NCBI GenBank assembly: GCA_017546315.1
Contig: JAFYXH010000002.1
Span: forward strand, 7,736-71,735
Origin: Alphaproteobacteria bacterium
GTDB taxonomy: Bacteria > Pseudomonadota > Alphaproteobacteria > RF32 > CAG-239
Reading direction: 5' to 3'
DNA length: 64,000 nt
Below the pieces are notes generated by a model. That model was not told the origin of the DNA. It did no database searches and saw nothing but the letters and a program-made list of their open reading frames with translations. Within the stretch, counting starts at the first letter, position 1, and the number at the start of each line of letters is the position of its first letter. The translations under genes were made by a program, and so were the position numbers. This document shows, in pieces, positions 2,683-21,970 of the stretch.

Positions 2683-5505
2683 ATGACTACAGATATATTA
2701 GACTTAAAAAAAGAGTTTTTCTCATATATAGGTGATGAAGAGTTAAACAATCAATTGTGGAACATGTATCAAGAAGAAAATTTAACTTTTTCTCCCCAAT
2801 CAACTCTAGAAATAATAGAACGAATGATAGATATTTTATCATCCAAAGATGTTGAGGAAACAAGAGATTTAAGAGAGCATGTTTGTCAAATTGTTTATTT
2901 AATCAATAAAAATAAAACAAAAGAAGAGATAAATGATGTCATATTATCTAAAGCAATGGATATAGAGCCATTAAGTATGTATGCTAAAAAATATCCATCA
3001 AGCTGTTTACGCAAATTAAGTACCACCTTTAGCAAAAAATATATAAAAGAGATGGTAGAAAAATACAAAGCAGGTCTAACTTTATATGCAGATAAAAAAA
3101 TTAACTCTTATTTTTATTCTGATTATGCATTTTTACTATATTTACAATCACTTGATGCTAAAAAATTAGATGATGATATACTAAAACTCTTAAATCACGC
3201 TATCTCCATAAATGATAAAAATCCATCAGCATATTTATATAAAGGTTATGTGTATGATGAGTTTTATAAAGAATTTGGGCTGGATTATGAGGAAAAATTA
3301 TCAATATGTGGAGAAATGTATGAAAAGTCATTATCATATGGTTCAGCAGTTGCCTCTAAAAAACTAAAGAAAATAAAAGAGCAACAGACGCCTAGTTGTT
3401 GGATAGAGCTCATGAATGCAGATATTCACCTAAAATCACTAGTAGCTAGTCTGGAAAAGAGTAAAGTTCAGGCATTTTCTATGTTATTATATGGTCCACA
3501 TGGTAGCGGAAAAGAAGAATTTGCTAAAAAATTATTAGAAAAATTAGAATTAAGCTATGAAGAATATTCAATAGCAGATACAGAAAAAACTATTCAAGCC
3601 AAAATCAGAGAATTAAAAGAAGATAAAAAAGCCTATATAATTAAATATTCTGAGAGAATGTTCTTTAATATCCCAAATTCCATAAATACAACGCCAGATA
3701 GTATGTCATATTTACTACAAGATATATTGCGTTTAAATCAGCATCCAATATTTTTAATTGTAGATGACATTAATAAAATCGATATAAATTTGGCCTCATC
3801 ATTTACCTTTAGAATTGGGTTTGATTTTATGGATAAAGCTCAAAAGGATATTGCATATAAGTCATTTTTCAAAAAAGAACCACCCAAAGAGCTAGATAAA
3901 ATCACCAAATTAGTATTAGAAGATTTCTCAAGAACAGTAAGAAAAGCCAAAGCCCTTGGTTGTATGGATAATCAAGAAGAAGTATTTTCAATCTTAAAAG
4001 ATGAAGTGAAATTTAAATATCAAGGTCAAGAATATACCTCAAATGGCAATAGTTTTAGTGATGAACTTATAAATTCAAGCATAGATTTAACCACCATAAC
4101 AGATAAGTTGTGCTCATTAAAATCTAATTTTACCATGCTAATATATGGCCCTCCAGGAACAGGAAAGAGCTACTATTTACGATATCTGGCAGAGCGCTTA
4201 GGATGCAAAATGATTGAAAAAACTGCTGCAGACCTCTTCTCTAAATATCAAGGAGAACCGGCTCGAAAAGTATCCGAAATATTCAAACAGCAAGAAAATG
4301 AAAAAGCTATCTTAATATTAGATGAAGTAGATGAAATACTTAAATCAAGGGAAAGCCTAGAGGGAAATCAAGGTTGGAAAACAGATATGATAAATGCTTT
4401 TCTAACAAGCTTAGATCGTGCTAAATATCCTGTTGCTTGCACAACCAATTTCATAGAAAAGATAGATCCAGCTATCTTAAGGCGTTTCACATTTAAGATA
4501 AAATTTGATTATTTAACACAAGAGCAAAACGAAATAGCTTATAGTCATTTTTTCAAAAAGAAAGCACCTCTTGGATTAGAAAAAATCAAAAATTTAACTA
4601 ATGGAGATTTTTCAACCGTAAAACGACAAAGTATTTTGTTAGATTACAGTCAAGATGATGAAAAAATATTAGAAGCACTAGATGAAGAAGTAAAAAGAAA
4701 ATTAGGCGATAATTATATCGAATATGATAGTTTCGAAGGTTTTGATATTGATTTAATCAATACAAATCATGCAAAATTAAAATATATAGAACAAATAATA
4801 CAAAAAGATGATAATGCCAAAATAGCGCTTTTAGGACCTGATGGAATAGGAAAAAAGACCTACATAAGATATATTTCAAAAATGTATGAAAAGACCTATA
4901 AGATATGTAATGATACAGATTTTTATACTAGGGGATATATAGATAGCCAGCTTGTAAAACAAGTGTTTGAAAGCGCAAAAGATGCTAAGTCGATTTTAGT
5001 ATTTGATAATGTATCTGGTTTGACTGCAAAAACAAGTAATCAAGATGTATCGTTAACTCAAATTCTATCTAATATAACCAAAAGCAAAAATGTAAATAGT
5101 GAATTACTAGAGCAGATAAAAAAATATAAATATCCGATATTTATTCTTTCAAATGATAAAAATGATTTTATAAGTAGAGATAAGTTAAGAACAATAATAA
5201 GCCTAGTTGTAGAGTTTGATTATTTAAATAAAAAACAAATAAATAAATTATATCGCAAAACTTTTGGTGTATCTTTACCAATATTTGCATCAATTGGATA
5301 TAAAAATCTAACTCCGCTAATGATGAAAAATATATCATCAACAATTAATATCATGGGAATAAATACCCCTAAAGATATATATAAAATATTTAATAAAGAA
5401 CTTGAGAAAGAAAAGGAAATACATATAAAAAGAATATTTGCTAAAATTTTATTATGTGCACTAGGTATATCAAGTCTTCTTTATTTTATACGCTTGATAA
5501 TGTAG
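2683..5505 (+). CDS. Tail-anchored protein with three tandem AAA+ modules (middle one intact, flanking ones degenerate) and a Sel1/TPR-like N-terminus
   Basis: 940 aa with three P-loops: GPHGSGKE (3493-3516), GPPGTGKS (4147-4170) and GPDGIGKK (4834-4857). Only module 2 keeps a Walker B (ILILDEVDE, about 4312-4338) and a classical-AAA sensor/arginine region (TTN..DPAILRRF). All three modules end in a similar F.F(D)Y/F block. The last ~23 aa (IFAKILLCALGISSLLYFIRLIM) are hydrophobic. Confidence 0.6.
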   Translation: MTTDILDLKKEFFSYIGDEELNNQLWNMYQEENLTFSPQSTLEIIERMIDILSSKDVEETRDLREHVCQIVYLINKNKTKEEINDVILSKAMDIEPLSMYAKKYPSSCLRKLSTTFSKKYIKEMVEKYKAGLTLYADKKINSYFYSDYAFLLYLQSLDAKKLDDDILKLLNHAISINDKNPSAYLYKGYVYDEFYKEFGLDYEEKLSICGEMYEKSLSYGSAVASKKLKKIKEQQTPSCWIELMNADIHLKSLVASLEKSKVQAFSMLLYGPHGSGKEEFAKKLLEKLELSYEEYSIADTEKTIQAKIRELKEDKKAYIIKYSERMFFNIPNSINTTPDSMSYLLQDILRLNQHPIFLIVDDINKIDINLASSFTFRIGFDFMDKAQKDIAYKSFFKKEPPKELDKITKLVLEDFSRTVRKAKALGCMDNQEEVFSILKDEVKFKYQGQEYTSNGNSFSDELINSSIDLTTITDKLCSLKSNFTMLIYGPPGTGKSYYLRYLAERLGCKMIEKTAADLFSKYQGEPARKVSEIFKQQENEKAILILDEVDEILKSRESLEGNQGWKTDMINAFLTSLDRAKYPVACTTNFIEKIDPAILRRFTFKIKFDYLTQEQNEIAYSHFFKKKAPLGLEKIKNLTNGDFSTVKRQSILLDYSQDDEKILEALDEEVKRKLGDNYIEYDSFEGFDIDLINTNHAKLKYIEQIIQKDDNAKIALLGPDGIGKKTYIRYISKMYEKTYKICNDTDFYTRGYIDSQLVKQVFESAKDAKSILVFDNVSGLTAKTSNQDVSLTQILSNITKSKNVNSELLEQIKKYKYPIFILSNDKNDFISRDKLRTIISLVVEFDYLNKKQINKLYRKTFGVSLPIFASIGYKNLTPLMMKNISSTINIMGINTPKDIYKIFNKELEKEKEIHIKRIFAKILLCALGISSLLYFIRLIM

Positions 5506-6577: not shown

Positions 6578-9217
6578 CTATCCGATAAGTTTTTTCCACC
6601 AAGTTTTCTTTTCTTCCTTAGGTTCTTGTTCAACTTTTTGAGAAGCGTTGGTCTCTAAAGAATGAACATTTTCACGGTTCTCGCTAAAATTATCATTCTT
6701 GTAATTATCACGATTACCTTTGCGACCTCTCATACGAGATTTTCCACGTCTGTCAAATCTACGACGTTGACGGTGTCTGCGTTCGTCATTTCCTTCTTCG
6801 CTATTGTTTGTTTCAATAGTTTCAATTTCTTCTTCTTCGTCATCAGATGCATCATTTCTTTGGGTCGCATGTTCATAAGCAGAAGTTGCTGCAACTGTCT
6901 CTTTTACTTCTTTAGTAACCTTAGTTCTTTCAATTTTGTAATCAGAGATATTGCGAATAGAACTATCAGCAGAAACCACAATTTCAATGTTATATCTTTC
7001 TTCCAAATCAGCTAAAATTCTGCGTTTATGATTTAAGATATAAATAGCGGTGTCAGAAGGAAGCTTTGCTTCTAAATGGTTATAAACCTTTTTAATGCCT
7101 TCTTCTTCTAATGCTCTTAAAATTAAGTTAGCGCCAGATTCTGTTGTTCTTTGAACACCTTGACCTTTACAATAAGGACATGTAGTGTAGTTGCTTTCAA
7201 CAAAAGAAGAGTGCATTCTTTGGCGAGAAATTTCCAAAAGACCAAATATGCTCATCTTAGCAACTTGAACTCTAGAACGATCAGTTTTAAGAGCTTCCTT
7301 CATGCGTTTTTCAACCGCATGATTATTTGCAGCCTCATCCATATCAATAAAGTCAACTACGATAAGACCAGCCAAATTACGAAGTTTTAATTGTCTAGCA
7401 ATTTCATCTGCAGCTTCAAGGTTTGTTTTCAAAGCTGTTTCTTCAATATCCATCTCATGTGTAGCACGGCCAGAGTTCACATCAATAGCAACCAACGCTT
7501 CAGTTGGATTAATCACCAAATAACCCCCACTAGCCAACTGTACAATAGGATTATGCAGTTTATCAAGCTCTTTCTCAACTTGATAGTGTTGGAAAACAGG
7601 GATTTCATTTGCTTTGCGACACTTAATCTTACGGCTCATATTAGGAGATAATATTTTGCTAAAATCTTTTGCCATTCTATAAGCTTCATCACCATCAATG
7701 ATAACTTCGCCAATATCCTTAGTATACATATCACGAAGAGCACGTTTGATTAGGTTACCTTCTTCATAGATAATGCTAGGAACTTTCATAGATAAAGCAC
7801 TATGACGAATATGATTCCATGTTCTAATCAAATAGTTGTAATCTCTAATGATATCTTCACGTTTTTTATCTTCGCCTGCAGTTCTGATAATCATAGACAT
7901 ATCATCATTTAAAGGAAGTTCTTTAATCAAGTCTTTCAAACGTTTACGGTCATTAGCATTTGTAATTTTGCGAGAAACACCACCAGACTTAATTCTATTT
8001 GGCATCAAAACACAATAACGACCTGCTAAAGAAAGGTAAGTAGTGCAAGCTGCTCCTTTGTTTCCTCTTTCTTCTTTAACCACTTGAACAAGAACAGTTT
8101 GACCTTCTTTAATCACATCTTGAATAGTAGAGCGGTGGTATAATTTTCTAGCATAAATAAGCTTTCTTTGGATTTCTAGATAACGCTCAGTATCTTCTGC
8201 TTCGCAAATTTCATCATCTTCGCAATCATTGTCGTTGTCATAAAGTTTGCTATCATCATCGTCATCAAAATCATCACAAGAGCTAGAAATATCTTCAGCA
8301 ATACTATCATCTCTAATACCACTAGCTTCTAAAGAAACTTTATATTTTCCTTTTGAAGAGTTTCCTCTTCTTCCTAAAAAGCGAGTACCACGACGACGAC
8401 CTTTTTTCTGAGATTTTTCTTCATCACCTTCTTCTAAAGAACTTTGTTCATCAGAACTACCTTCTTCTTCATCACTAAATTCTTTAACTTCAGTTGATAC
8501 AACTTCTTCTTGTTCTTCATCTAAAGGAACAGTTTCCTCATTGTCTAAATGTTTGTCGTAGCAACAATCACATTTTCCAAAAGAGCAAGCCTCTTCACTA
8601 TGCTCTTCATGACAACAACAATTGTTATCATGAGCTTCTTGATTGCAATTATCTTCACAAGAGCATTCACAAACGCCTTTTTCAGCACAACGGCAGATAC
8701 CATCTTCTTTACGGCATTGGCAATCAGCACCGCATCCGCAATCAGAAGTCTTAATATCATTTGAAGAATTAAGTTCACCATTTTCGCAGTCTTCGGTATT
8801 TTGAGCATTTTCTAATGCTTCAGCCTCAGCTTTCATGCGAGCTTCATATTCAGCTCTTTTTTGCTCACGTTCCAAACGTCTTCTTTCTCGTTCTGCTTGG
8901 CGATCAAGTTGATATTGTCTTTTGCGTTCAATAATTTCTTCAACTTCTTTTTCAACTTCTTGTTTTACTTCGTCAGAAACATTATAATAGTCAGGGTGAA
9001 TTTCACCAAAAGCCAAAAAGCCATGACGATTCCCACCATAATCAATAAAACAAGCTTGCAAAGAAGGTTCAATTCTAATAACTTTAGCAGAAAAGATATT
9101 TCCTTTTATTTGTTTTCTAAAACTTGATTCAAATTCAACATCTTCAATCTTATTGCCATCAACAATCACAACTCTTGTTTCTTCAGGTTGTGTGTCATCA
9201 ATTAACATTCTCTTCAT
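6578..9217 (-). CDS. rne: Ribonuclease E, with a ~275-aa insert splitting the S1 domain
   Basis: 879 aa. The N-terminus is MKRMLID..EETRVVIV. The two S1 halves are GNIFSAKVIRIEPSLQACFIDYG and GQTVLVQVVKEERGNKGAA. Catalytic-core blocks present include GGYLVINPTEALVAIDVNSG, the CPYCKGQG Zn-link, and a short Arg-rich tail. Confidence 0.9.
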   Translation of the reverse strand: MKRMLIDDTQPEETRVVIVDGNKIEDVEFESSFRKQIKGNIFSAKVIRIEPSLQACFIDYGGNRHGFLAFGEIHPDYYNVSDEVKQEVEKEVEEIIERKRQYQLDRQAERERRRLEREQKRAEYEARMKAEAEALENAQNTEDCENGELNSSNDIKTSDCGCGADCQCRKEDGICRCAEKGVCECSCEDNCNQEAHDNNCCCHEEHSEEACSFGKCDCCYDKHLDNEETVPLDEEQEEVVSTEVKEFSDEEEGSSDEQSSLEEGDEEKSQKKGRRRGTRFLGRRGNSSKGKYKVSLEASGIRDDSIAEDISSSCDDFDDDDDSKLYDNDNDCEDDEICEAEDTERYLEIQRKLIYARKLYHRSTIQDVIKEGQTVLVQVVKEERGNKGAACTTYLSLAGRYCVLMPNRIKSGGVSRKITNANDRKRLKDLIKELPLNDDMSMIIRTAGEDKKREDIIRDYNYLIRTWNHIRHSALSMKVPSIIYEEGNLIKRALRDMYTKDIGEVIIDGDEAYRMAKDFSKILSPNMSRKIKCRKANEIPVFQHYQVEKELDKLHNPIVQLASGGYLVINPTEALVAIDVNSGRATHEMDIEETALKTNLEAADEIARQLKLRNLAGLIVVDFIDMDEAANNHAVEKRMKEALKTDRSRVQVAKMSIFGLLEISRQRMHSSFVESNYTTCPYCKGQGVQRTTESGANLILRALEEEGIKKVYNHLEAKLPSDTAIYILNHKRRILADLEERYNIEIVVSADSSIRNISDYKIERTKVTKEVKETVAATSAYEHATQRNDASDDEEEEIETIETNNSEEGNDERRHRQRRRFDRRGKSRMRGRKGNRDNYKNDNFSENRENVHSLETNASQKVEQEPKEEKKTWWKKLIG

Positions 9218-12673: not shown

Positions 12674-12805
12674 CTAACAACTTTTTGTCCCTCAAGTCAA
12701 GAACTAAAAAAAATAATCCTTGAAAATCTTGTTATAAAAAGTGCTTGTAATGACTATGTTTTTATGATATACTTCCGATATAATTTATAAGAGGAGAATA
12801 AAATA

Positions 12806-15800
12806 ATGGATTTTTTTAGTCAAAAAGACAAAAGAGAATTGAAAACAAAACACGTTAAAGATATTGTAAAAAGAGAATTAAATAAAATCAGAATATCTTT
12901 TTCAGAAAAGTTCTTAAACGCTAATTATAGAGATAACATCACAGAAGAAAGCGTAAAGTCTTTACATGAAGAATTAAAGAATATTTTTATATCAAACGAT
13001 CAAGAAGACTTATATAACGCTCATATAGAAAATTTTGAACATTTCAAACAAAATGGAGATATTCAAAAACCAATAAATCTAGAAACAGAAGAATCTCAAT
13101 TATTTTGGGGTATAGCATTAGGATACTATGCTTCCCATCCAGAAATTGCATCAAAATGGCAAAATCTAAATGAAGGAAATTGTCGCCTTTCTGAAACAAC
13201 TTTATGGAAACGCATAGAGAAATCATCATATATGCAAAAAGAGTTAACCAAACACGCATATGTAGTAAATGACACTCTAGAAGATAAAAATACCAAAATA
13301 ATATGGCATGAACATGGTTATCCAAACATCAGCTATTGTTTTATTCCAACAGAAAAAGTGATAGTAGATGATATGTTGTGGACACTTGTTTGCGGTACAG
13401 ATGCAGCCTCAACTGCTATCAACCACGAGATAGCACACTCAAAAGGAACACAATTTACCCAAAGCCCTAAAATGGAGCAATTAAGTAAAGAGCAAGAAGG
13501 TTTTGTAGAAGAACTTTCTCGCCTAAGTTCTGCAAATGATAAAGATGAATGGATAAAGGTGGCTAAAAAGGCCGCACGAAACCAAATAGAATACGAATAT
13601 CGTTTTCGCTTTTTAGATGAGCTAGAAAATATGTTTGCTAATAGATATTCTGTGGAATTTGGTGGAGAATACGATAAAGCTCACCTAAACGAATTAGAGA
13701 CCGTCATAAATGTCGGTATCAAATATTTATCTCCTAAAGAAAAAGAAGCCTTAAAAAAAGAGATAGAAACATCTGCAGAAAGAAGAATACAACACGTAAA
13801 AGATATAGCCAGAAATAGTTTTTTTGCTAATAATGAATTAGTATCAAACATAAAAACGGATGATTGGCAATCAATTCACCTTTTCCCAGATCTTTTAACA
13901 GGTATTGATAAAGATGGTCGTAAAATGGGTTCTAAGGAAAGTTTTGAAAAAATCAGAGAAATTTGTGATCAGTTTGAGCAAAAGTGTCCTAGCTTTTATT
14001 TAAAACTCAATGATAAAGAATTATATGATGCCCGTATGACAGCTTTAAGTAAACAAAGGGTAAAATTAGTAGATGAATTCTTTGATATGTTTGTAGCTCA
14101 TCATATGGAAGAAATATACCGAAATTCAGATAAAAATATCGAAAACACAATACAACAATTAGAACAACAAGGAAAGATATCTCAACAGCAACAAGGAAAC
14201 AGCGGAAAAATTCCTCCTATGCCTCCGCAATCTAGTCAGTGCAATAAAGGTAATTGTTCTCAAGGTTCAACTCCATCTCCTACTCCTCAACAAGGTTCAG
14301 GTCAAAGTGGTCAACCTCAACCACAACAAAGTTCAGGTCAAGGAGGTCAACCAATCCATCAACAAAATAGTCAAGTAAATCCAAATAAACAAAACGGTCA
14401 AGGAGATAAACAAAACCAACAGCAAAATGATGGTCAAGGAGGTTCTAAAGATCAAACTAATGGGGGCAATAAAGAAAAGCAAGATCAAAATGGTCAAGGA
14501 GATAAACAAAACCAACAACAAAATGATGGTCAAGGAGGTTCTAAAGACCAAACTGATGGAGGTAATAAAGAAAATCAAGATCAAAACGGTCAAGGAGATA
14601 AAGAAAACCAACAGCAAAATGATGGTCAAGGAGGTTCTAAAGACCAAACTAATGGGGGCAATAAAGAAAAGCAAGATCAAAATGGTCAAGGAGATAAACA
14701 AAACCAACAACAAAATACTCAAGGTGGTGGTAATAAAGACCAAACTGATGGAGGTAATAAAGAAAATCAAGATCAAAACGGTCAAGGCGGTTCTAAAGAT
14801 AAAGATGATCAAAATGGCCAAGGTGGTTCAAAAGATAAAAATCAACAACAAAAAGATTCAGGAGATAAAGGCAATAACTCAAGTGAGCCTAAATTAGATG
14901 AAAATGGTTATCCTGATAGTAAGAATTTTGAAATTGAACAAAAAAATGTTAATAAAGGTGAGGAATTAAGCCAAGATGAGAAAAATGAAATAGCTAAAAA
15001 AGCAGAAAAAAATGGTTCAACCGTGGAAGACTTAGCTAAAGAAGCAGGAGAGAATATTCCCAAAGAACAGCTTCCTCAACGTAGTTCTCCTCTAGAAAGA
15101 ATCAAGTCTAGCGCAAAAGAAAATTCTAATGGAGATATAGATAATGATAAAGATGATCTATCCAAATATATTCCAGAGCAGGATGTTCCAATATTGATAA
15201 CTCCAGAAAAGATGAAAAGATATTTGCAATCGGATAACGCTGGATACGATATCTTGCAAGGAAGTTATGACGAATATCAAAAGCGTGTTGCTAAATATAA
15301 AGATGAGATAGCTCGTATTAGAGTTTTAATTAAAAAGATTATAACTCAAAAGAAACTTGATAGTATCAAACATGGTCGAGCTCAAATCAAAAAAGAACAA
15401 ACATTGCTTCCATATAATGGTGCTCAAACTCTTGATGTTTCTCGTCAAAGAAAATTAATTCAAAAAATACGTTCAAACGATCCAACCATCTCAGAGGATG
15501 ACTTTAGACGTTTCTCTTCTAAACGAAAATTTAGAGAAGATGAAATTATTGAAAAGACAGAAATAGAAGAAAGTAATTTTGCATTTATCATAGATGGATC
15601 AGGCTCAATGGCCGGAGGACCTTTTAAAAGTGCTATGGCAACAGCTCATGTATTGTATGAGGCAACCAAATCTTTCAAAGAAGTAAACATATTTATTTAT
15701 GTAATGGGACAGCCAACCCCTACAACAATTGCAAAGCCAGGAATGAGCACAAAAGAAATTGGAGAAAGATTAGATGCAGCAGAAAAAGAATTTGGCTATG

Positions 15801-16285
15801 GATGCAATGACCATATCGTTCCAGCAATGCAACAATCATTAGCAGATATTGCTGAGAATATGGGTAAAAATGCTAATTCAACCAGCGGTTTTATACATAT
15901 ATTCCCAATTACAGACGGCGGAAATAATGATTATGCAGGCTTAACCTCTAATCTAAATGGCGCATATCCAAATAAATGTATCAAAACTTTGATAGAAAAT
16001 AACGAATATCTCACATTTGACTGGTTGTTTATAGATCAACAATATACAAACTACACCAAACCATTCATTGAAGATATGAAGAAAAAAGGATGTACTCAGT
16101 TGGATTATGTAGATGGCGTATTTTCTAAATATAAAGGAGATGTGGTAAAAGAAAAAATTGCCGATAAAGTAATCGAACTTCTAGCTAGGCGCATAAGGCA
16201 TTCTCAAGTTAAAGAGAAAACTCAAAATGGCGTTAAGAAAAAATTAATTGAAAAAGGATTACAAGAAATTAAAAGATACAGATAG
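12806..16285 (+). CDS. Large protein: HExxH-containing N-domain, Q/N/G/P-rich disordered linker, C-terminal vWA (MIDAS) domain
   Basis: 1159 aa. SD aagaggag lies about 10 nt upstream of the ATG. HEIAH is at 13424-13438. Low-complexity sequence covers about aa 465-770 and includes the 96-bp repeats. The MIDAS motif DGSGSM is at 15593-15610, with a later ITDGGNND, in a CobT/NorD-like C-terminal vWA arrangement. Confidence 0.65.
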   Translation: MDFFSQKDKRELKTKHVKDIVKRELNKIRISFSEKFLNANYRDNITEESVKSLHEELKNIFISNDQEDLYNAHIENFEHFKQNGDIQKPINLETEESQLFWGIALGYYASHPEIASKWQNLNEGNCRLSETTLWKRIEKSSYMQKELTKHAYVVNDTLEDKNTKIIWHEHGYPNISYCFIPTEKVIVDDMLWTLVCGTDAASTAINHEIAHSKGTQFTQSPKMEQLSKEQEGFVEELSRLSSANDKDEWIKVAKKAARNQIEYEYRFRFLDELENMFANRYSVEFGGEYDKAHLNELETVINVGIKYLSPKEKEALKKEIETSAERRIQHVKDIARNSFFANNELVSNIKTDDWQSIHLFPDLLTGIDKDGRKMGSKESFEKIREICDQFEQKCPSFYLKLNDKELYDARMTALSKQRVKLVDEFFDMFVAHHMEEIYRNSDKNIENTIQQLEQQGKISQQQQGNSGKIPPMPPQSSQCNKGNCSQGSTPSPTPQQGSGQSGQPQPQQSSGQGGQPIHQQNSQVNPNKQNGQGDKQNQQQNDGQGGSKDQTNGGNKEKQDQNGQGDKQNQQQNDGQGGSKDQTDGGNKENQDQNGQGDKENQQQNDGQGGSKDQTNGGNKEKQDQNGQGDKQNQQQNTQGGGNKDQTDGGNKENQDQNGQGGSKDKDDQNGQGGSKDKNQQQKDSGDKGNNSSEPKLDENGYPDSKNFEIEQKNVNKGEELSQDEKNEIAKKAEKNGSTVEDLAKEAGENIPKEQLPQRSSPLERIKSSAKENSNGDIDNDKDDLSKYIPEQDVPILITPEKMKRYLQSDNAGYDILQGSYDEYQKRVAKYKDEIARIRVLIKKIITQKKLDSIKHGRAQIKKEQTLLPYNGAQTLDVSRQRKLIQKIRSNDPTISEDDFRRFSSKRKFREDEIIEKTEIEESNFAFIIDGSGSMAGGPFKSAMATAHVLYEATKSFKEVNIFIYVMGQPTPTTIAKPGMSTKEIGERLDAAEKEFGYGCNDHIVPAMQQSLADIAENMGKNANSTSGFIHIFPITDGGNNDYAGLTSNLNGAYPNKCIKTLIENNEYLTFDWLFIDQQYTNYTKPFIEDMKKKGCTQLDYVDGVFSKYKGDVVKEKIADKVIELLARRIRHSQVKEKTQNGVKKKLIEKGLQEIKRYR
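14393..14850 (+). repeat. In-frame 96-bp (32-aa) tandem repeat, about 4 full copies plus a degenerate tail
   Basis: Units start at 14393, 14489, 14585 and 14681. The consensus peptide is NGQGDKQNQQQNDGQGGSKDQT(N/D)GGNKE(K/N)QDQ. Copies differ by a few substitutions, and a partial, diverged copy follows from 14777. Confidence 0.85.
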
Positions 16286-16357
16286 GCAACAAAAGTGTTG
16301 AAGAACATTAAAAAATATGATAAAATGATATAAATTGCTAAAAAGTAGGAGAGAAAA

Positions 16358-18979
16358 ATGTCAAAAATTTATATGCACGAAATAGGAACAGAAAATTATC
16401 CTTTTCCTAAAGAAATAAAAAAAGGACCCAAAGGGGAAATTACTGTAGAATGGGCGGCATCAGATGAACAAGCATTCTATATTCCTACAATGCGAGAATG
16501 CACAACAGATGAACTTTATGGTATGCTTATGCGTGAAGTTGTAACAGACCCAACGTTGTTGCCGGATATGAAAGAGTTATTAACTCGTTTAGATAGAGTG
16601 CAAACTCCAGAAGATTGTAAGAGTTATGCTTATAATCCAGTCGGAGCTCCTGGTAATGGTAAAACATTCCTTATGAAGGCATTAGGAAAATTAGTTCATC
16701 CCAAAGGTGCAATGGTAATCAACTGTAAGAACGTAAAAGACGTTGAAGAAATATACAAGAAAACAAGTATTGGAGTATCTAAGGCAAGCAAGCGCAAACG
16801 TATTGATGCTCATATTCACATGGTAAACCTTGGAGATGAAGAACCATTAAAACCTGAAACAATTTTGCTTTTAAAGAAAAACTTAGGAAATAATGTAGTA
16901 ACCCAAGAGATGCGAGAAGATAGAAAGATAACATCTATTGATTGGGAAGCAACCAATGCCTCAGCAGAAGTTATTGAGCTTGTTTGCGATAAATTTATGC
17001 ATCTCGAAGGTGTAGACTACAAGGAAGATGCCGGACACGTAGGTTTAGTAACCGAAGATGGTCCATTGCTTCGTGCTTTAGTCGATGAAAAATCACCAGA
17101 CTTTGGTCGTTTAGTTATCTTAGATGAATCTAACCGTCTTCCAGAAGGTGACGCCTTATTGACAATTCAAGCATTTTTCTCAGAGCCAGGAGCAGGGGAG
17201 CTAAAGCTAGAAGGTGGTGATGATAAAGTATTTACCATCAAACGAGATAAGATACCATCAACATTCCTTTTCCTAGGAACGTCTAACCAAGCGGTAGAAG
17301 AAAATGGTGATAGTGCCAGAAAGTTATCCCGTCCAGAGATTTCTCGTCAAGGTCAAGGTATTGATATTAGATTGATTTCAGAGCCTACAAAAGAAGATTA
17401 TTTTTCAAGAACCCTAAAACACTTAACAGGTGTTCCAGCGTATTATACTTATATGTCAGATAGAGATTACTGGGATAAAAACCCTAGTGAATTAGCCGAA
17501 GAATTAAAACGTCAACGAACAATAGGTTTGACAAAAGAAGAAATAAAAGAAATTCCACAAGAGGAAATGTTTAATATCAAACATATTGGTAGAACAGTAA
17601 AAGTAGCAAGACAAGTTGCTGAATTGTTGTATAATACTGATAAATTGATTTTAGCAACCTCTAAAGATGGCTCACTACCAGAAGGCTATACGTCTTATTT
17701 AAGAGATGAGGCAGTGGTTGACCTTCGATACATCTTTAAGCTTATTCAACATTCAAAGATAGAGCAAGCTAAAAGCACTAAAGGTGGAGCTGCAATGTTT
17801 AAAAAGATTAAAAACACTCAACCAAAATCAGAAGAAGATGTTTTATTCGCAATGGAAAGAAGACTTAAAACTCGTGATAGAGCTCATATGCTCCATCGAG
17901 GAGTAAAGCTTGAAAACGAGTTAAGTCAAAAACTATACAATATGCTTATCCCTGAAGATATTGACAAGAAATTAAGAGATTCAATATCTCCTGAAGATGA
18001 CTTCAAAAAAATTGAAGCTATTTGGGGTGGTTTACGTCAAAAAGCCAAAGGCTTGAAATTTCAGTTTGCAGGATATGAAGGACAAGATAGTGTAACTAAT
18101 CTCTATAATGCTAAAGAAGAAGATTTTCCTGTTGCCGCAACTGAAGGCTTAAGAAATATGCTATTAGGTGCGATGAATGAGGTTTATAATACAAAATTTA
18201 AAGCAGAAGATGTCTTAGATGAAGAAAGTCTTGGAGAAGCATTGAAAATGTTGGGAGAAAATGGCAAAGAACGAAACTTTGTCATTCCAAACCTAGATAA
18301 AAGAAAATCATCTTTTGAACCTCTTAAAGCAGTTTATCTCGCTCAAGGAAAACAAAACGATGGCATTGAAAGAGAAGAATTGTTAACAGTAAACGAATTC
18401 GCAAATTCATTTATCTTAAAGCAAATGCGTTCACGCAATATGAAGCGTATTGCTAATGAAAAAGTAAATATTCCAGACGGAGTTGACGTAAATAATGAAG
18501 CCTTAAAAATCGCTAATGGTGAACATGAAATATTCCAAACCACCACTGTGATGTTAAATGATGAAGCTCAAGAAAAAATAGGTATGGCTCACATTATTTA
18601 TAACAAATCAACAGATTATGCGTTTGTTCTTTCAGATTTTGACGTATCACCACGTGTTCGTACAGCATTAAGTGAAAATGGTGCATTTTTCGTAAACTGC
18701 GAACATCTTGAAGAAGAGTTCAAAGTAATCTCTAGTGAATTGAGAAAACAATTAGGTGGAGTTCAAGAAGATGCAATTGCTAACGCAATAATGCTAAGAA
18801 TAGATTTAGATTTAGCAACCGTTTCAGAAGTATATGGTGAATTAGATAATTTCTTTCAATTTGTAACACAAGAAGACGGAATGTGTCCACCAGAAAAAGT
18901 AGATGCAGTAATGCTAACATCTAAAGAATTTAGCCAAAATATACCAATTCGAGATATATTAAAAAACAAAGGGAGATAA
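16358..18979 (+). CDS. AAA_5 (MoxR/CobS-like) ATPase with an insertion between the Walker motifs and a ~530-aa uncharacterised C-terminal region
   Basis: 873 aa. SD aggagag lies upstream. Walker A GAPGNGKT is at 16643-16666 and Walker B VILDES at 17114-17131. This is followed by LPEGDALLTIQAFF..L..G......P..FLFLGTSNQ, the pattern of dynein-related AAA_5 domains. The gene lies 72 nt after the vWA gene. Confidence 0.7.
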   Translation: MSKIYMHEIGTENYPFPKEIKKGPKGEITVEWAASDEQAFYIPTMRECTTDELYGMLMREVVTDPTLLPDMKELLTRLDRVQTPEDCKSYAYNPVGAPGNGKTFLMKALGKLVHPKGAMVINCKNVKDVEEIYKKTSIGVSKASKRKRIDAHIHMVNLGDEEPLKPETILLLKKNLGNNVVTQEMREDRKITSIDWEATNASAEVIELVCDKFMHLEGVDYKEDAGHVGLVTEDGPLLRALVDEKSPDFGRLVILDESNRLPEGDALLTIQAFFSEPGAGELKLEGGDDKVFTIKRDKIPSTFLFLGTSNQAVEENGDSARKLSRPEISRQGQGIDIRLISEPTKEDYFSRTLKHLTGVPAYYTYMSDRDYWDKNPSELAEELKRQRTIGLTKEEIKEIPQEEMFNIKHIGRTVKVARQVAELLYNTDKLILATSKDGSLPEGYTSYLRDEAVVDLRYIFKLIQHSKIEQAKSTKGGAAMFKKIKNTQPKSEEDVLFAMERRLKTRDRAHMLHRGVKLENELSQKLYNMLIPEDIDKKLRDSISPEDDFKKIEAIWGGLRQKAKGLKFQFAGYEGQDSVTNLYNAKEEDFPVAATEGLRNMLLGAMNEVYNTKFKAEDVLDEESLGEALKMLGENGKERNFVIPNLDKRKSSFEPLKAVYLAQGKQNDGIEREELLTVNEFANSFILKQMRSRNMKRIANEKVNIPDGVDVNNEALKIANGEHEIFQTTTVMLNDEAQEKIGMAHIIYNKSTDYAFVLSDFDVSPRVRTALSENGAFFVNCEHLEEEFKVISSELRKQLGGVQEDAIANAIMLRIDLDLATVSEVYGELDNFFQFVTQEDGMCPPEKVDAVMLTSKEFSQNIPIRDILKNKGR

Positions 18980-18981
18980 CA

Positions 18982-19296
18982 ATGAGTGAAACTTTTAATA
19001 AAGACGATATAGAAAGCATAACACTTCAAGCGATTTTTTTGCGCCCATATCAAGAAATGAATGGCATAAGGGTTTATCCTTTAGAAAAAGAAAGCGAAGA
19101 AGTTGTGATAAAAAATATGGAAGGATGTCAAGAAGTAAATGATTTGACTTCACTTTCTGAAGCATTGGCAGATCCAGATGTCAAAAAAGTATATATTCCT
19201 AAATTTGCATCCATTACTTCCAAAGGTATGAAAGGAGTGTTGGCAAGAGCAAGCTTAACCAAGAATATATATTGTGCATTCAAGGTTGTATTGTAA
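18982..19296 (+). CDS. Hypothetical 104-aa protein, translationally coupled to the AAA_5 gene
   Basis: The ATG is 2 nt after the upstream stop (gggagataacaATG) and the operon terminator follows. I recognise no motif. Confidence 0.4.
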   Translation: MSETFNKDDIESITLQAIFLRPYQEMNGIRVYPLEKESEEVVIKNMEGCQEVNDLTSLSEALADPDVKKVYIPKFASITSKGMKGVLARASLTKNIYCAFKVVL

Positions 19297-19330
19297 AATA
19301 ATCAAAAATATAGTCTTTAAAAAACGAAAA

Positions 19331-19353
19331 GCAGGGAACTCCCTGCTTTTTTT
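19331..19353. terminator. Hairpin terminator closing the 12806-19296 operon (also serves the convergent gene)
   Basis: GCAGGGA-ac-TCCCTGC stem followed by T7, with an A-rich stretch on the other side. Confidence 0.6.
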
Positions 19354-20083
19354 AGTTAAGAACCATTCCGTGATGTTTTTTGATTTTTTGGATCATTAAA
19401 TCCTGCATTTCCAAGCAATAATCAAGATAAGAGATGAATAATTTTCTAAAACCGGCGTACTCATCATCAAATCCCGGAAAATTGTGAACAGAATATGCAA
19501 GCATTCTAGTCAAATCCATAGTTTCTAACTTTGTTCCTTTTCCTCCTTTTGAAATAAAAGAAGCAATGTTAAAACTATTGATAGCAAGCATTTCTTTGTA
19601 GAAGCTGTCATCTTGAACTTTTAAGACGAACTTCTCAAATGTAGTACCACTTGCATCAAAGTCAAAATCAAAACAGAAGAATTTGGAAGAAATCAAAGTT
19701 TTGACAACACCTAATGAAAAGTAATCCGCCAAATCCTTAGAGTAAGGCCAAGCAAACACAAGAGCTTCTCCTAAACTCTTAAAGGAATGAAAGGTTAAGA
19801 TGTTGATAAAATCAATCGAGATATCATCATCATTAAGTTCAAAAAACTTTTTTGCAATCTTAGGGCTAAAGACATATATATCAGAAGCCTCAAATTCGTG
19901 TTTTGATAAAATCTCATTGAAACCCTTATACCTCATAAGAGGGATACGCTCATCATCAGCTTTTAACAGTTGTGAAAAAGCTCTAGGAGTATCACTCAAT
20001 AAATTAAGGATTTCCTCAGCCTGATTTGATGTCAATTTAGCATTCTCATCAAAGAGAAGCTTTTTCATTTCTTTGTAGGTCAT
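19352..20083 (-). CDS. Hypothetical protein
   Basis: 243-aa ORF with no overlapping competitor and codon usage like its neighbours. No motif recognised. Confidence 0.45.
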   Translation of the reverse strand: MTYKEMKKLLFDENAKLTSNQAEEILNLLSDTPRAFSQLLKADDERIPLMRYKGFNEILSKHEFEASDIYVFSPKIAKKFFELNDDDISIDFINILTFHSFKSLGEALVFAWPYSKDLADYFSLGVVKTLISSKFFCFDFDFDASGTTFEKFVLKVQDDSFYKEMLAINSFNIASFISKGGKGTKLETMDLTRMLAYSVHNFPGFDDEYAGFRKLFISYLDYCLEMQDLMIQKIKKHHGMVLN

Positions 20084-20317: not shown

Positions 20318-21970
20318 ATGAAAAATTTACGAAAAACAATCTCGTTTCTTGCGATTTTAATTGCAAGTATTTGTGTTTTTTCAAGTTGTGCTGGCGAAGA
20401 TTCTAAACGATTACTTCAAAACCAACTTGTAAGCGATTACTTCTATCTATGGAGTTCTACTCAAAAAGGTGATACGATAATCTTTGATTGTCCTCAATCA
20501 TTAAAAGTAAGTTATGGGGATGATGAGTTAACTTTTAATCCAAGTGCTAGCGTTAAACTTTATGTGGTAAAAGATACCATATACATAAATTCGACCATGG
20601 ATATAAAGCCAACTCTTCAACAAGAAACCAATAAAAATTCTTCTTTTGGTTCTTCTCCAATAACTTATAAGTTAACTAAAAACTTTAACTTAAACGATGG
20701 TGAAGTAATTTGTGCAGAAGCAACCTATGAAGCTTATACATATTCTAAAGATGGTAAAGAAGAAAAACTTCCTTATATGTCAATTAGCTCCATAGACTTT
20801 CTATCTTCTAAAATAGAGCAATTTTCAAATTCAACCAGCTTGTTCAAAGCATTGCTTGATTTTGAAATAACTTGGAAAGAAGAAAATTCAACCCATACAG
20901 GTGAGCTTCCATGCACATTAGCTTACATTAAGAAACTCTCAACCAATACCCCAAAAGATGAAGAGCAAGAAAAAACTGATGAGTTGTTAAATACAAGCTA
21001 CACTCAAGGAATAAATTGGAAAGATAATAGTAGTTTTACTCTATTTGTAGAAAAAAAGGAAAACTGGAGCATAAGTGGTCAAAAAATCACTAAATATAAT
21101 TCTCCCACCCTTCAATTTTACTTAAATTCTAAAGAAAACAAAGTAAAGGAAGTCGAAAGTTTCAATTTTTCTCATCAAGAAGAAAGCTCAACAACTTCCA
21201 ACAATCTAAGCCAAGAAGGATGGCAAATAACTAAAACAGAGATAACAAAGACCTTCAAATATTCTAATTCTAAAGATAGCTTTGAAGATACATTTGTATA
21301 TCCAACATACACCACATCCTTAAACTTAGACGGTAAAAACTTTCCTTTTGAATTAAATTTTGTATTTAACGCAACCGCATCACAAACTTCTAGCATATCC
21401 ACCTCTTCAACCAACATCACCAAGGGCGTATTAAGCTTTGATGGTAAAACATTAGAAAAAGAAGTTATAACAACTCTTAATCTAAAGACCTCTACCACAC
21501 CAGAAGATGAAAACATTCCAACTCACGGAAAAATCTTAGGTCATTTCATCTCCGCAGTGTATGATCCATCAAGCAATATAACCAAAAGATGTGTGGTAAT
21601 CCGTTATGAAGAAGGTTATCACTGGGGAATATGTCCTTATGAACAGTATTTTCCAGATGAATTTACTTATACTCAAAGCGGATTTTCTGGCTTTAATTCT
21701 GTAGCTTTTGATAAGCAAAGTGGTAAATATCGCATAGCAAGGGCAACAGAAAATTCATCAGCCATTTATTGGTATAGAGAAGACAATACTCTTATTTCAG
21801 GAATAGATTTTGTCAGTTGTAAAGTGTTAGGATGGAAAAATATCGTAGCAGGCAAATATAGCTACAAGATGAATGCTTATCAAGAAGAGCTATCATCAAA
21901 CTCCTATACCCTAACCATCACTGCACCTGATGGAAGCAAAAAAACTTTCAAATCCCAAAAAAGAGACTAA
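20318..21970 (+). CDS. Putative S/T/N-rich lipoprotein
   Basis: 550 aa. The signal peptide ends in a lipobox-like VFSS-C (MKNLRKTISFLAILIASICVFSSCAGED). The rest has no recognisable domain. Confidence 0.55.
   Translation: MKNLRKTISFLAILIASICVFSSCAGEDSKRLLQNQLVSDYFYLWSSTQKGDTIIFDCPQSLKVSYGDDELTFNPSASVKLYVVKDTIYINSTMDIKPTLQQETNKNSSFGSSPITYKLTKNFNLNDGEVICAEATYEAYTYSKDGKEEKLPYMSISSIDFLSSKIEQFSNSTSLFKALLDFEITWKEENSTHTGELPCTLAYIKKLSTNTPKDEEQEKTDELLNTSYTQGINWKDNSSFTLFVEKKENWSISGQKITKYNSPTLQFYLNSKENKVKEVESFNFSHQEESSTTSNNLSQEGWQITKTEITKTFKYSNSKDSFEDTFVYPTYTTSLNLDGKNFPFELNFVFNATASQTSSISTSSTNITKGVLSFDGKTLEKEVITTLNLKTSTTPEDENIPTHGKILGHFISAVYDPSSNITKRCVVIRYEEGYHWGICPYEQYFPDEFTYTQSGFSGFNSVAFDKQSGKYRIARATENSSAIYWYREDNTLISGIDFVSCKVLGWKNIVAGKYSYKMNAYQEELSSNSYTLTITAPDGSKKTFKSQKRD

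Follow-up and report, generated by a model that had tools for sequence, protein, structure and literature searches.

Three consecutive genes in the 64,000-nucleotide stretch of DNA that we analysed (the window) form an operon that is real and conserved, in uncultured gut Alphaproteobacteria (Table 1). We consider it likely, at roughly 60% and with the whole mechanism set out below included, that its products are the three subunits of a cytoplasmic AAA+ machine, a remodeller of the MoxR/vWA type. The sequence features listed in the initial annotation are all present at the positions given there, as seen from translations, TRF and direct reading, and HExxH, DxSGS, Walker A and B, N310 and R330 exceed chance features in that they are kept across homologues. 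Since the window's own proteins fall below the Pfam thresholds (VWA_2 at E 6e-4 for gene 1; generic P-loop matches only for gene 2), the domain calls draw on evidence from the family and from structure.

Table 1. Features of the operon and its flanks (window positions).
Feature	Position	Strand	Evidence
Promoter-like site TTGTAA-17-TATACT, with TG	12745..12773	+	consensus scan; weak
Gene 1, 1159-aa adaptor: zincin-like N-domain, disordered linker, pre-vWA segment, MIDAS vWA	12806..16285	+	ORF
Gene 1 N-domain, aa 1-458	12806..14179	+	family conservation
HEIAH (H207, E208, H211; aa 207-211), putative zinc-binding and catalytic motif	13424..13438	+	alignment, 81 homologues
E274-N-M-F-A-N279-R280 block, candidate third zinc ligand	13625..13645	+	alignment; ligand role inferred
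Disordered Q/G/N-rich net-acidic linker, aa ~459-800	14180..15205	+	composition, length variation
96-bp tandem repeat array within linker, 4.1 copies, 89% matches	14390..14787	+	TRF
Pre-vWA helical segment and stretch upstream of MIDAS strand β1, aa ~801-925	15206..15580	+	hhalign
vWA domain with MIDAS and C-terminal tail	15581..16285	+	Pfam, hhalign
MIDAS motif DGSGSM, aa 930-935	15593..15610	+	translation, family alignment
Gene 2, 873-aa AAA+ ATPase, AAA_5 (MoxR/dynein-related) class, large extensions	16358..18979	+	homologues, Pfam, AlphaFold, Foldseek
Walker A GAPGNGKT, aa 96-103	16643..16666	+	G96, P98, G101, K102, T103 invariant in 28 sequences
~130-aa insertion, strand β2 to Walker B, aa ~123-250	16724..17107	+	split AAA_5 matches, model
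Walker B VILDES, aa 253-258	17114..17131	+	D256, E257 invariant (28 homologues)
Sensor-1 N310 and candidate arginine finger R330	17285..17347	+	invariant in 28 homologues; roles inferred
Gene 2 C-terminal extension, aa ~441-873, ~430 residues	17678..18976	+	AlphaFold model, remote homologues
Gene 3, 104-aa conserved small subunit, begins 2 nt past gene 2 stop	18982..19296	+	conservation
Intrinsic terminator AAAAGCAGGGA-ACT-CCCTGCTTTTTTT, bidirectional	19327..19353	.	scan and direct reading

All three genes lie on the same strand, with ORF calls giving products of 1159, 873 and 104 aa and simple arithmetic giving gaps of 72 nt and 2 nt. Their Shine-Dalgarno sites can be read directly: AAGAGGAG for gene 1, TAGGAGAG for gene 2 and AGGGAG for gene 3. 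The region 5' of gene 1 is a 132-nt divergent intergenic region that holds the promoter-like site, although the consensus scan behind it counted such sites no more often than in shuffles. At the other end, the operon shares its terminator with a convergent 243-aa gene; an A-run and a T-run flank the hairpin (19327-19350), making it bidirectional.

The order of the trio is constant, namely a large HExxH/vWA protein, an ATPase of ~880-1060 aa and a protein of ~100 aa. All 23 of the 23 close loci show it in synteny, as do four remote loci whose neighbours differ, and this 27/27, a count that comprises only the related loci long enough to reveal the trio, bears out the treatment of the three genes as one system in the initial annotation. 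The remote loci are unrelated housekeeping neighbourhoods, and the partners there are true homologues of genes 2 and 3 with intact Walker motifs. Across loci the neighbours vary and are mostly housekeeping genes, and in two close relatives whose neighbourhoods were read (L001 and L002) the operon occupies the same chromosomal position. Such stable chromosomal synteny amid housekeeping genes points to a housekeeping role and not to defence. Gene 3, which follows gene 2 in all 27 of these loci, has remote homologues at E 5e-7 to 4e-15; its protein has no Pfam or PDB match.

The gene 1 product, MBR5154191 in NCBI and labelled 'hypothetical protein' there, begins with a domain from a large, unannotated family of 125 representative clusters, some remote members of which are found near T4SS or LRR genes. 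Helices dominate the domain, and three short strands are predicted immediately ahead of the HExxH helix. In an alignment of 81 diverse homologues, 68 have HExxH at the corresponding columns, in line with the earlier proposal of a split AAA_5, linker and MIDAS machine with a conserved HExxH head on its vWA subunit; it is degenerate in the other 13 (10 of them RE[IV]G-type), a minority such as is usual in enzyme/pseudoenzyme families. General-base Glu208 is present in 78/81. The same alignment yields a candidate for the third ligand: E274, 63 residues past H211, occurs in 77/81 homologues and N279 in 68/81, whilst HExxH and this nearly invariant Glu are found together in 66/81. Internal spacing of the E274 block equals that of the E-D-x-x-x-E-R of phage CobT-like N-domains. 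The head apparently carries an intact zinc-protease-like site of the gluzincin-like HExxH...E kind, which would bind zinc and may be proteolytic. Protease activity of the N-domain is putative, as no search settled its fold: neither Pfam nor PDB gave a match, to a peptidase or otherwise, not even to a deep profile; the AlphaFold model is poor (pLDDT 59.6, <50 around HExxH) and gave no Foldseek match; and hhalign returned <1% against CobT_N and 9% against the phage zincin heads. As 16% of the family is without HExxH, catalysis is not required universally.

The linker that follows is low in hydrophobic residues (7%; Q19/G14/N12/K10/D9 %), and across homologues it spans 154-755 aa with a net charge that is always negative. 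A strain variant of gene 1 encodes 1095 aa, the difference of 64 aa corresponding to two repeat units. Further on, aa ~875-968 match the CobT segment ahead of and including the MIDAS strand (hhalign 94%, E 1e-7), and by analogy with the CobST and NorQD structures the pre-vWA segment is a candidate pore-inserting shaft or finger. The best hhalign match of the C-terminal half is ViaA (95% over 187 columns), with YehP at 91% and CobT_C at 91-94%, and in close homologues Pfam reports VWA_2 in 15/15, VWA in 10/15 and, weakly, CobT_C in 11/15. DxSGS is invariant in 17/17 full-length close homologues, and most long proteins of the wider family carry it too; D1037, in ITDGGN, is likewise invariant. 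By these Pfam and hhalign profile matches only, the C-terminus is, as first annotated, a vWA domain with MIDAS, and it belongs to the class that partners MoxR.

For gene 2, with 41 homologues, the AlphaFold model is confident (pLDDT 82.5) and matches ClpB-D2, HslU, dynein, McrB, CbbQ and phage CobS at a Foldseek probability of 1.0. Pfam AAA_5 is found in 13/28 family members, and two distant members pass the gathering score when scanned alone. The insertion sits where a helix-2 insert would, with the Pfam AAA_5 matches breaking around it, and the strand pattern of the model places a predicted pre-sensor-1 β-hairpin (aa 281-295) ahead of N310 and R330. Sequence and model together identify gene 2 as an AAA+ ATPase of the AAA_5 class; profile comparison does not tie it specifically to CobS, RavA, YehL or another MoxR protein past the P-loop. 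Its C-terminal extension, a helical region and then an α/β domain, is modelled confidently and kept in remote homologues, and no sequence or Foldseek fold match could be attributed to it. The fold searches suggested in the initial annotation thus recovered the AAA+ fold expected of gene 2, and found no match for this extension or for the gene 1 N-domain.

Although the initial annotation presented the system as undescribed, a zincin-like head, disordered acidic linker and vWA domain paired with an AAA_5 ATPase is a layout precedented in kind. CobT consists of an M48C-like head, a disordered linker and a vWA domain (bioRxiv 10.64898/2026.07.21.739949), and from jumbo phages a MoxR/vWA pair has been reported whose vWA protein starts with a metallopeptidase domain (Iyer et al. 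2021, PMC7824862). As in gene 1, phage CobT-like proteins have a zincin head (HExxH intact in 6/7 examined) with an E-[DN]-x-x-x-[EN]-R block after the motif, then an acidic low-complexity linker of 47-360 aa and a MIDAS vWA, and in 5/7 pairs the vWA gene precedes that of the AAA_5 protein, as in the operon. However, BLAST and HMM searches link none of the phage pairs to the window proteins; their heads are ~200 aa with the Glu ~30 residues past HExxH, as opposed to ~450 aa and 63 residues in gene 1; their ATPases are 371-531 aa and their loci lack a gene 3 homologue, whereas the bacterial trio sits on the chromosome with stable vertical inheritance. RavA-ViaA, NorQ-NorD, CbbQ-CbbO and YehL-YehP also place an AAA_5 ATPase beside a vWA protein made of an N-domain, disordered linker and C-terminal MIDAS vWA, but these adaptors have no zincin motif and the ATPases (270-500 aa) are without gene 2's helix-2-region insertion or its long C-terminal extension. 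The known clients of these pairs are Rubisco, cNOR and Frd/Nuo, whereas none is indicated for the operon. Midasin/Rea1 (and mitochondrial VWA8) similarly combine an AAA_5 motor, a long acidic disordered linker and a MIDAS domain; Midasin/Rea1, however, unites six AAA_5 modules and MIDAS in one eukaryotic polypeptide, without a peptidase-like domain, and it shares a Pfam class with the operon proteins.

We posit that gene 2 would form an ATP-driven ring, presumably a hexamer like other AAA_5/MoxR proteins, with gene 1 as its adaptor: the vWA domain would be seated on the ring, and the residues that lead into MIDAS strand β1 would act as a shaft or finger inside the pore. Insertion of this sort has been shown for CobST and NorQD, and a finger-in-pore mechanism has been proposed as general for the MoxR-vWA class. 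The MIDAS site may grip an acidic residue of the client protein, whilst the disordered linker tethers the HExxH...E domain. Would this domain then cut the client presented by the motor, which is likeliest in the ~80% of the family retaining the motif? Or could it be a docking or specificity module only, like the dead M48C-like domain of CobT? Gene 3, whose translation is coupled to that of gene 2, would provide a small accessory subunit dedicated to this machine, probably one that binds the family-specific extensions of the ATPase.

Metal or cofactor insertion is the role of most characterised MoxR/vWA pairs, and the machine-level evidence would equally fit a metal-insertion or cofactor-maturation chaperone, in which the motor and its vWA adaptor open up the client enzyme so that metal can be loaded, as in CobNST, BchHID, NorQD and CoxDEF, and HExxH...E binds or hands over a metal ion instead of cleaving. 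The family minority without HExxH keeps everything else, and therefore the scaffold works without that site. We nonetheless think this unlikely, considering that HExxH with a distal Glu is a catalytic zincin signature, that Glu208 would be superfluous for a pure metal carrier, and that gene context points to no client, a metalloenzyme or metal transporter being linked in none of the loci seen. Lower still are the odds of the defence module which the initial annotation had entertained. vWA-MoxR cores with peptidase effectors do occur in ternary conflict systems (VMAP, iSTAND, FtsH and β-propeller types; Kaur et al. 2020, PMC7159879), which also have three components and in rare cases bear a metallopeptidase effector on the vWA protein, and phages carry metallopeptidase-vWA/MoxR pairs; the gene 1 head would here be the effector and gene 3 the third component. 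Yet the N-terminal vWA and variable C-terminal effectors of those systems are the opposite of gene 1, with its C-terminal vWA and conserved head, and gene 3, at 104 aa, is no large VMAP, iSTAND or FtsH protein, nor a β-propeller. Conflict systems are sporadic and diversifying, whereas the trio is syntenic as described; PADLOC gave no match, no relatives were found in phage and plasmid collections, and the GC content of the operon equals that of its flanks.

We give even less credence to the idea that the pair is a highly diverged orthologue of CobS-CobT, which are motor and adaptor in the aerobic cobaltochelatase CobNST, and that it still works with a CobN-like subunit whose gene lies at another genomic site. 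Both systems join an AAA_5 ring ATPase to an adaptor, gene 1 follows the CobT order of peptidase-like N-domain, disordered acidic linker, pre-vWA shaft and MIDAS vWA, and there are the CobT_C matches. But the vWA domain matches CobT no better than ViaA or YehP, profile comparisons liken neither the N-domain to CobT_N nor the ATPase to CobS, and PF06213 (CobT), CobS_N and CbbQ_C are all without matches; neither protein is an ordinary CobT or CobS orthologue over its full length. As the initial annotation held, both subunits are much larger than in characterised pairs (1.8x CobT for the adaptor and 2.6x CobS for the ATPase). The two genes stand in the opposite order to bacterial cobS-cobT and are joined by a conserved third one, and the HExxH lost from canonical CobT (where it aligns as DSMAL/DAFAL) is kept. 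The window ORFs scanned include no cobalamin, Nor or Cbb gene and no CobN-sized ORF, as previously noted, and we found no evidence for a cobalamin role. Least credible of all is a secreted or host-directed effector complex, again raised at the outset, such as a substrate of type IV secretion whose Q/N-rich region is of a eukaryote-like kind: the T4SS or LRR genes near some remote family members and the polymorphic repeat-rich linker would suit it, but there is neither signal peptide nor TM segment, pairing with a cytoplasmic-type ATPase is obligatory, and synteny is stable in varying, mostly housekeeping surroundings.

To conclude, what is new here is a giant, three-subunit version of the MoxR/vWA machine. 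As a remodelling machine, it would probably serve lineage-specific housekeeping, in maturation or quality control, rather than defence.

The best-supported reading of the trio formed by gene 1 (a HExxH/vWA adaptor-type protein), gene 2 (an AAA_5 ATPase) and gene 3 (a small protein) is that of a cytoplasmic MoxR/vWA-type remodelling machine, set apart by a zincin-like head, the greatly increased size of its ATPase and a small third subunit of its own. The genes are separated by 72 nt (gene 1/gene 2) and 2 nt (gene 2/gene 3), their ribosome-binding sites, read directly, are AAGAGGAG for gene 1, TAGGAGAG for gene 2 and AGGGAG for gene 3, and the GC content of the operon (0.30-0.35) is the same as that of its flanks. 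Translation, direct reading and scans recovered every ORF, gap, motif and repeat of the initial annotation, down to their coordinates. Two further ORFs, at 14333-14821 (-, 162 aa) and 14427-14897 (+, 156 aa), were rejected as genes, as their repetitive translations are artefacts of the tandem repeat. All three proteins are deposited as "hypothetical protein" from an Alphaproteobacteria bacterium MAG (MBR5154191-93), and none has a match in NCBIfam, PADLOC, PHROGs or, by phmmer, PDB sequences. A Pfam scan gave gene 1 only a sub-threshold VWA_2 match (E 6e-4), and gene 2 only generic P-loop matches, with no AAA_5 match for the window protein.

Features of the three-gene operon (window coordinates; motifs by residue number)
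Feature	Position	Strand	Basis or remark
Gene 1	12806-16285	+	ORF, 1159 aa
Gene 2	16358-18979	+	ORF, 873 aa
Gene 3	18982-19296	+	ORF, 104 aa
Bidirectional hairpin terminator	19327-19353	.	Scan and direct reading; common to the operon and the convergent 243-aa gene
HEIAH	aa 207-211, gene 1	+	Translation
DGSGSM (MIDAS)	aa 930-935, gene 1	+	Translation
Walker A, GAPGNGKT	aa 96-103, gene 2	+	Translation
Walker B, VILDES	aa 253-258, gene 2	+	Translation
96-bp tandem repeat, 4.1 copies	14390-14787	+	Within the gene 1 linker

The 41 homologues of gene 2 measure 875-980 aa, and a scan of one genome per species placed such homologues in 20 species-level MAGs of uncultured gut/rumen Alphaproteobacteria, labelled Acetobacter sp., Rickettsiales bacterium or Alphaproteobacteria bacterium; a match in Erwinia proved spurious, being a DUF1684 protein. 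A gene 2 homologue adjoins a vWA/MIDAS partner in every locus examined, and at all loci with sufficient sequence (23/23) a large gene 1-like ORF is followed by the gene 2 homologue and then, within a few bases, by an ORF of 103-121 aa. Four remote loci (L004, L034, L035 and L036) repeat this order exactly despite quite different neighbours, namely hemC/hemD/hemY, clpP/clpX, maf/queG, and LRR or Rick_17kDa genes. By HMM search, the neighbours at these loci are full-length homologues of gene 2, with intact Walker motifs (E 2e-37 to 4e-123), and homologues of gene 3 (E 5e-7 to 4e-15), and the shared order together with these homologues marks the trio as a conserved module, upholding the earlier proposal of a three-gene system. 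Additional same-strand genes lie 3' of gene 3 at L004 11071-12620 (286 and 231 aa), L034 13248-15956 (516 and 383 aa, the latter a DUF6782 protein) and L036 12824-14401 (a 525-aa LRR protein), and are possible lineage-specific accessory or client genes.

The neighbours of the trio are the same as in the window at two close-relative loci (L001 and L002), and elsewhere it sits among housekeeping genes. Beside it in the window are a 243-aa orphan convergent on the operon (19352-20083, -) and a protein of 550 aa whose N-terminus (…SSCAGEDS…) resembles that of a lipoprotein (20318-21970, +), both without a Pfam match; these genes are syntenic with the trio at L001/L002 and not at the more distant loci, so they probably lie outside the system. 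Further afield, an RNase E/G homologue (6578-9217, -) has an acidic, cysteine-rich insertion (…CGCGADCQCRKEDGICRCAEKGVCECSCEDNCNQEAHDNNCCCHEEHSEEACSFGKCDCCYDKH…), after which come long stretches rich in D, E and S; such an insertion is unusual for RNase E and might be a metal-binding module. Pfam (E<=1e-5) leaves two large ORFs unannotated, at 56923-59538 (-, 871 aa) and 35376-36731 (+, 451 aa).

A word-indexed protein search with the gene 1 N-domain found only 9-12 relatives, which were fragments, and suggested a clade-restricted orphan. This was ruled out by searching an N-domain profile exhaustively against 1.84 billion representatives with HMMER, which returned 125 clusters at 50% identity (88 at E<=1e-10), most of them 850-1350 aa long with the N-terminal domain and a DGSGSM near the C-terminus. 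Word-based searches probably overlook this family because its linker is of low complexity and its gene calls are fragmentary.

At the C-terminal end of gene 1, DxSGSM and a downstream TDG are kept in 17/17 close homologues, and Pfam matches among close homologues are to VWA_2 (15/15), VWA (10/15) and, weakly, CobT_C (11/15; best E 0.013, sub-threshold). Aligned by hhalign, the C-terminal half matches CobT_C with 94% probability (E 1e-7), over a region that takes in the segment immediately N-terminal to the MIDAS strand, the position of the CobT shaft that goes into the CobS pore. In a control comparison of the vWA half, ViaA (95%, 187 columns) and YehP (91%) matched as well as CobT did (91%), which places this domain in the class of MoxR partners generally, and not with CobT particularly. 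On these grounds gene 1 is predicted to end in a vWA domain of the ViaA/NorD/CbbO/CobT class with an intact MIDAS (DxSxS ... D). Upstream of it, the linker of the window protein is Q/G/N-rich with 7% hydrophobic residues, and the linkers of 17 full-length close homologues are Q/G-rich, net acidic and hydrophobic-poor, vary in length (154-755 aa) and share no conserved sequence. The 96-bp repeat is polymorphic, as a gene 1 variant in the same 90% cluster differs by exactly two units (1095 versus 1159 aa), and in databases gene 1 is often split at this array into fragments of 284-680 aa.

In gene 2, G96, P98, G101, K102 and T103 (Walker A), D256 and E257 (Walker B), N310 (predicted sensor-1) and R330 (candidate arginine finger) are invariant across 28 homologues, and these residues are intact in the four remote ones. 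Against Pfam AAA_5 (PF07728), 13/28 family members reach E<=0.01, the best at 6.5e-8; two distant members exceed the gathering cut-off of 22 bits, at 29.1 and 26.2 bits, and their matches are interrupted by the insertion. Given the family alignment, AlphaFold produced a confident model (pLDDT 82.5), which consists of a small N-terminal beta-domain, the AAA+ core, a helical lid and some 430 residues that are helical and then alpha/beta. A strand-containing insertion of ~130 residues lies between beta-2 and Walker B, and hairpin strands 281-285/291-295 precede beta-4; the fold that the model predicts is thus AAA+, complete with helix-2 insert and pre-sensor-1 beta-hairpin. Foldseek matched it with probability 1.0 to ClpB/ClpC D2, HslU, dynein, McrB, sigma-54 activators and CbbQ (MoxR), and, in a viral library, to phage CobS and dynein-related AAA_5 proteins, at TM-scores kept low by the extra domains. 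In profile comparisons gene 2 showed no specific affinity to CobS, RavA, YehL or other MoxR proteins beyond the P-loop, and its family profile had no significant match among PDB sequences; the C-terminal extension likewise had zero matches there or by Foldseek. The window encodes a second large AAA+ protein unrelated to gene 2 (2683-5505, +, 940 aa), with a classical AAA domain (PF00004, E 2e-38) at aa 485-610 and additional P-loop signals around aa ~265 and ~712; it may hold several NTPase modules. As for gene 3, no match was found in Pfam, PDB or PADLOC, nor a significant one for its family profile among PDB sequences, and it is unrelated to the small ORFs beside phage or bacterial cobS/cobT.

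In the N-domain, or head, of gene 1 (aa 1-458), conserved positions among 81 diverse members are W101, W134, P173, D189, G197, H207, E208, H211, E274, N279, N295, N343 and W354. The HEIAH singled out by the initial annotation is indeed conserved, with HExxH at the aligned columns in 68/81 and HExxH plus E274 in 66/81; E208 is kept in 78/81 and E274 in 77/81. In the 13 degenerate heads, 10 are of RE[IV]G type, including that of L004. E274, a candidate third zinc ligand, lies 63 residues past H211, within a predicted helix in a domain whose AlphaFold model is poor, a spacing resembling that of M48 enzymes, and by sequence this HExxH with a downstream Glu is a gluzincin-type signature. The model, made with 13 close sequences in the alignment, has a pLDDT of 59.6, falling below 50 at aa 187-217 around the HExxH, and Foldseek returned nothing for it. 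Neither shallow nor deep N-domain profiles matched PDB sequences significantly, nor did the deep one match Pfam; Peptidase_M48 was marginal (3/15 gene 1 members, E>=0.041).

How this head relates to known systems is best considered alongside CobS-CobT. CobT combines an M48C-like N-domain that binds the small subdomain of CobS, a disordered linker of ~90 residues, a shaft in the CobS ring and a MIDAS vWA (10.64898/2026.07.21.739949); NorQ-NorD has an analogous finger in the pore. A jumbo-phage MoxR/vWA pair with an N-terminal metallopeptidase on the vWA protein has also been described (Iyer et al. 2021, PMC7824862). For comparison we retrieved CobS-CobT pairs from five bacterial loci and CobT-like/CobS-like pairs from seven phage loci. 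HExxH is absent from CobT in the five bacterial pairs, whereas in six of the seven phage proteins the motif is intact, with E-D-x-x-x-E-R after it and then an acidic linker (47-360 aa) and a MIDAS; the vWA gene lies 5' of the ATPase gene in 5/7 phage pairs, the same order as in the window. The phage heads (L039-L045) are homologous to bacterial CobT_N (L027-L031) by hhalign (93%, E 3e-7), and the phage HEVAH falls on DSMAL/DAFAL of bacterial CobT, which makes the latter a dead version of a zincin kept intact by phages. Phage "CobT", judged by these motifs, may be an active metallopeptidase and not a cobalamin enzyme. Between the gene 1 head and the phage zincin heads, hhalign gave a probability of only 9% (E 0.0035), although the register is sensible, with a helix, three strands and the two HExxH motifs in line; homology between them is no more than suggested.

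The CobT_C matches and the CobST preprint raise the possibility that genes 1 and 2 are simply a diverged CobT and CobS. We reject this: ViaA and YehP match the vWA equally well, PF06213 (the CobT N-domain) is found in none of 15 gene 1 members at E<=5, and the head scores <1% against CobT_N by hhalign. Likewise, CobS is ~330 aa with CobS_N, AAA_5 and CbbQ_C, whereas gene 2 matches neither CobS_N nor CbbQ_C and aligns with CobS at 4%, over the P-loop only. No CobN-like or cobalamin genes were found among the window ORFs scanned, nor in the related loci read. In Sinorhizobium, Cereibacter and Sphingomonas (L027-L029), cobS-cobT adjoins a J-domain protein gene, with BolA too in Sinorhizobium, and corrin-pathway genes are not adjacent, which hints at a conserved association of CobST with chaperone or Fe-S-related genes. 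We keep CobS-CobT as the closest architectural analogue of the trio, without implying membership. The structural reading of the initial annotation was largely right, and it overreached in calling the kind of system undescribed, considering that CobST and the phage CobT/CobS-like pairs share the theme: the trio is a new, giant, three-subunit version of zincin-linker-vWA plus AAA_5.

The defence module that had been offered as an option would recall the vWA-MoxR ternary conflict systems, in which the vWA is N-terminal, the C-terminal effectors are variable and the third component is VMAP, iSTAND, FtsH or a beta-propeller (Kaur et al. 2020, PMC7159879). Gene 1 differs in having a C-terminal vWA and a conserved other domain, and gene 3 is only 104 aa; those systems are sporadic, multi-copy and diversifying, whereas we found one trio per fetched locus. 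With PADLOC negative and neighbours that are varied and housekeeping, the defence option loses its footing. A host-directed effector fares no better, given the same neighbours and the absence of a signal peptide from the three proteins, in which no TM segment was found either. A phage or plasmid origin was rejected, as tblastn against phage and plasmid collections found nothing for gene 2 or either half of gene 1. Housekeeping neighbours and the negative PADLOC, phage and plasmid searches together favour a lineage-specific housekeeping role; a defence system, mobile element or secreted effector is less likely.

Within a housekeeping role, what might the machine do? Going by its characterised relatives, gene 2 would form a ring, the shaft of gene 1 would insert into the ATPase pore, the head would bind zinc and cleave protein, and gene 3 would serve as a small subunit. 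In this reading the head is probably catalytic in most members. The main alternative would be a chaperone for metal insertion, with the HExxH...E of gene 1 binding instead of catalysing. We would give about three chances in ten to an ATP-gated, tethered zinc protease, in which a MoxR ring with large extensions and a small subunit would, by means of a MIDAS adaptor, seize a client and feed it to an active gluzincin on a long disordered leash. If this protease reading is true, the coupling of AAA+ motor and protease would be unlike that of the stacked-ring FtsH, Lon and ClpXP, and the trio would be a catalytically intact living relative of the ancestor behind the dead M48C-like head of CobT, as well as a lineage-wide housekeeping factor of gut-associated and endosymbiont-like Alphaproteobacteria.

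MoxR/vWA machines are widespread, and clients or mechanisms are established for few of them. This family combines features not found together in characterised pairs, namely an apparently intact zincin site, an ATPase enlarged by ~560 residues and an obligatory third subunit, and, if the head is an active protease, MoxR motors would drive proteolysis besides cofactor insertion. The natural occurrence of both active-site-intact and degenerate heads, with the HExxH contrast between phage proteins and CobT, helps to explain the peptidase-like fold of CobT. The family is widespread and mechanistically suggestive; its only annotation is "hypothetical protein", and Pfam, NCBIfam, PHROGs and PADLOC all miss it. 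Its hosts, gut Alphaproteobacteria yet to be cultured, are abundant and have small genomes, so a conserved operon of 6.5 kb is likely to be important to their biology.
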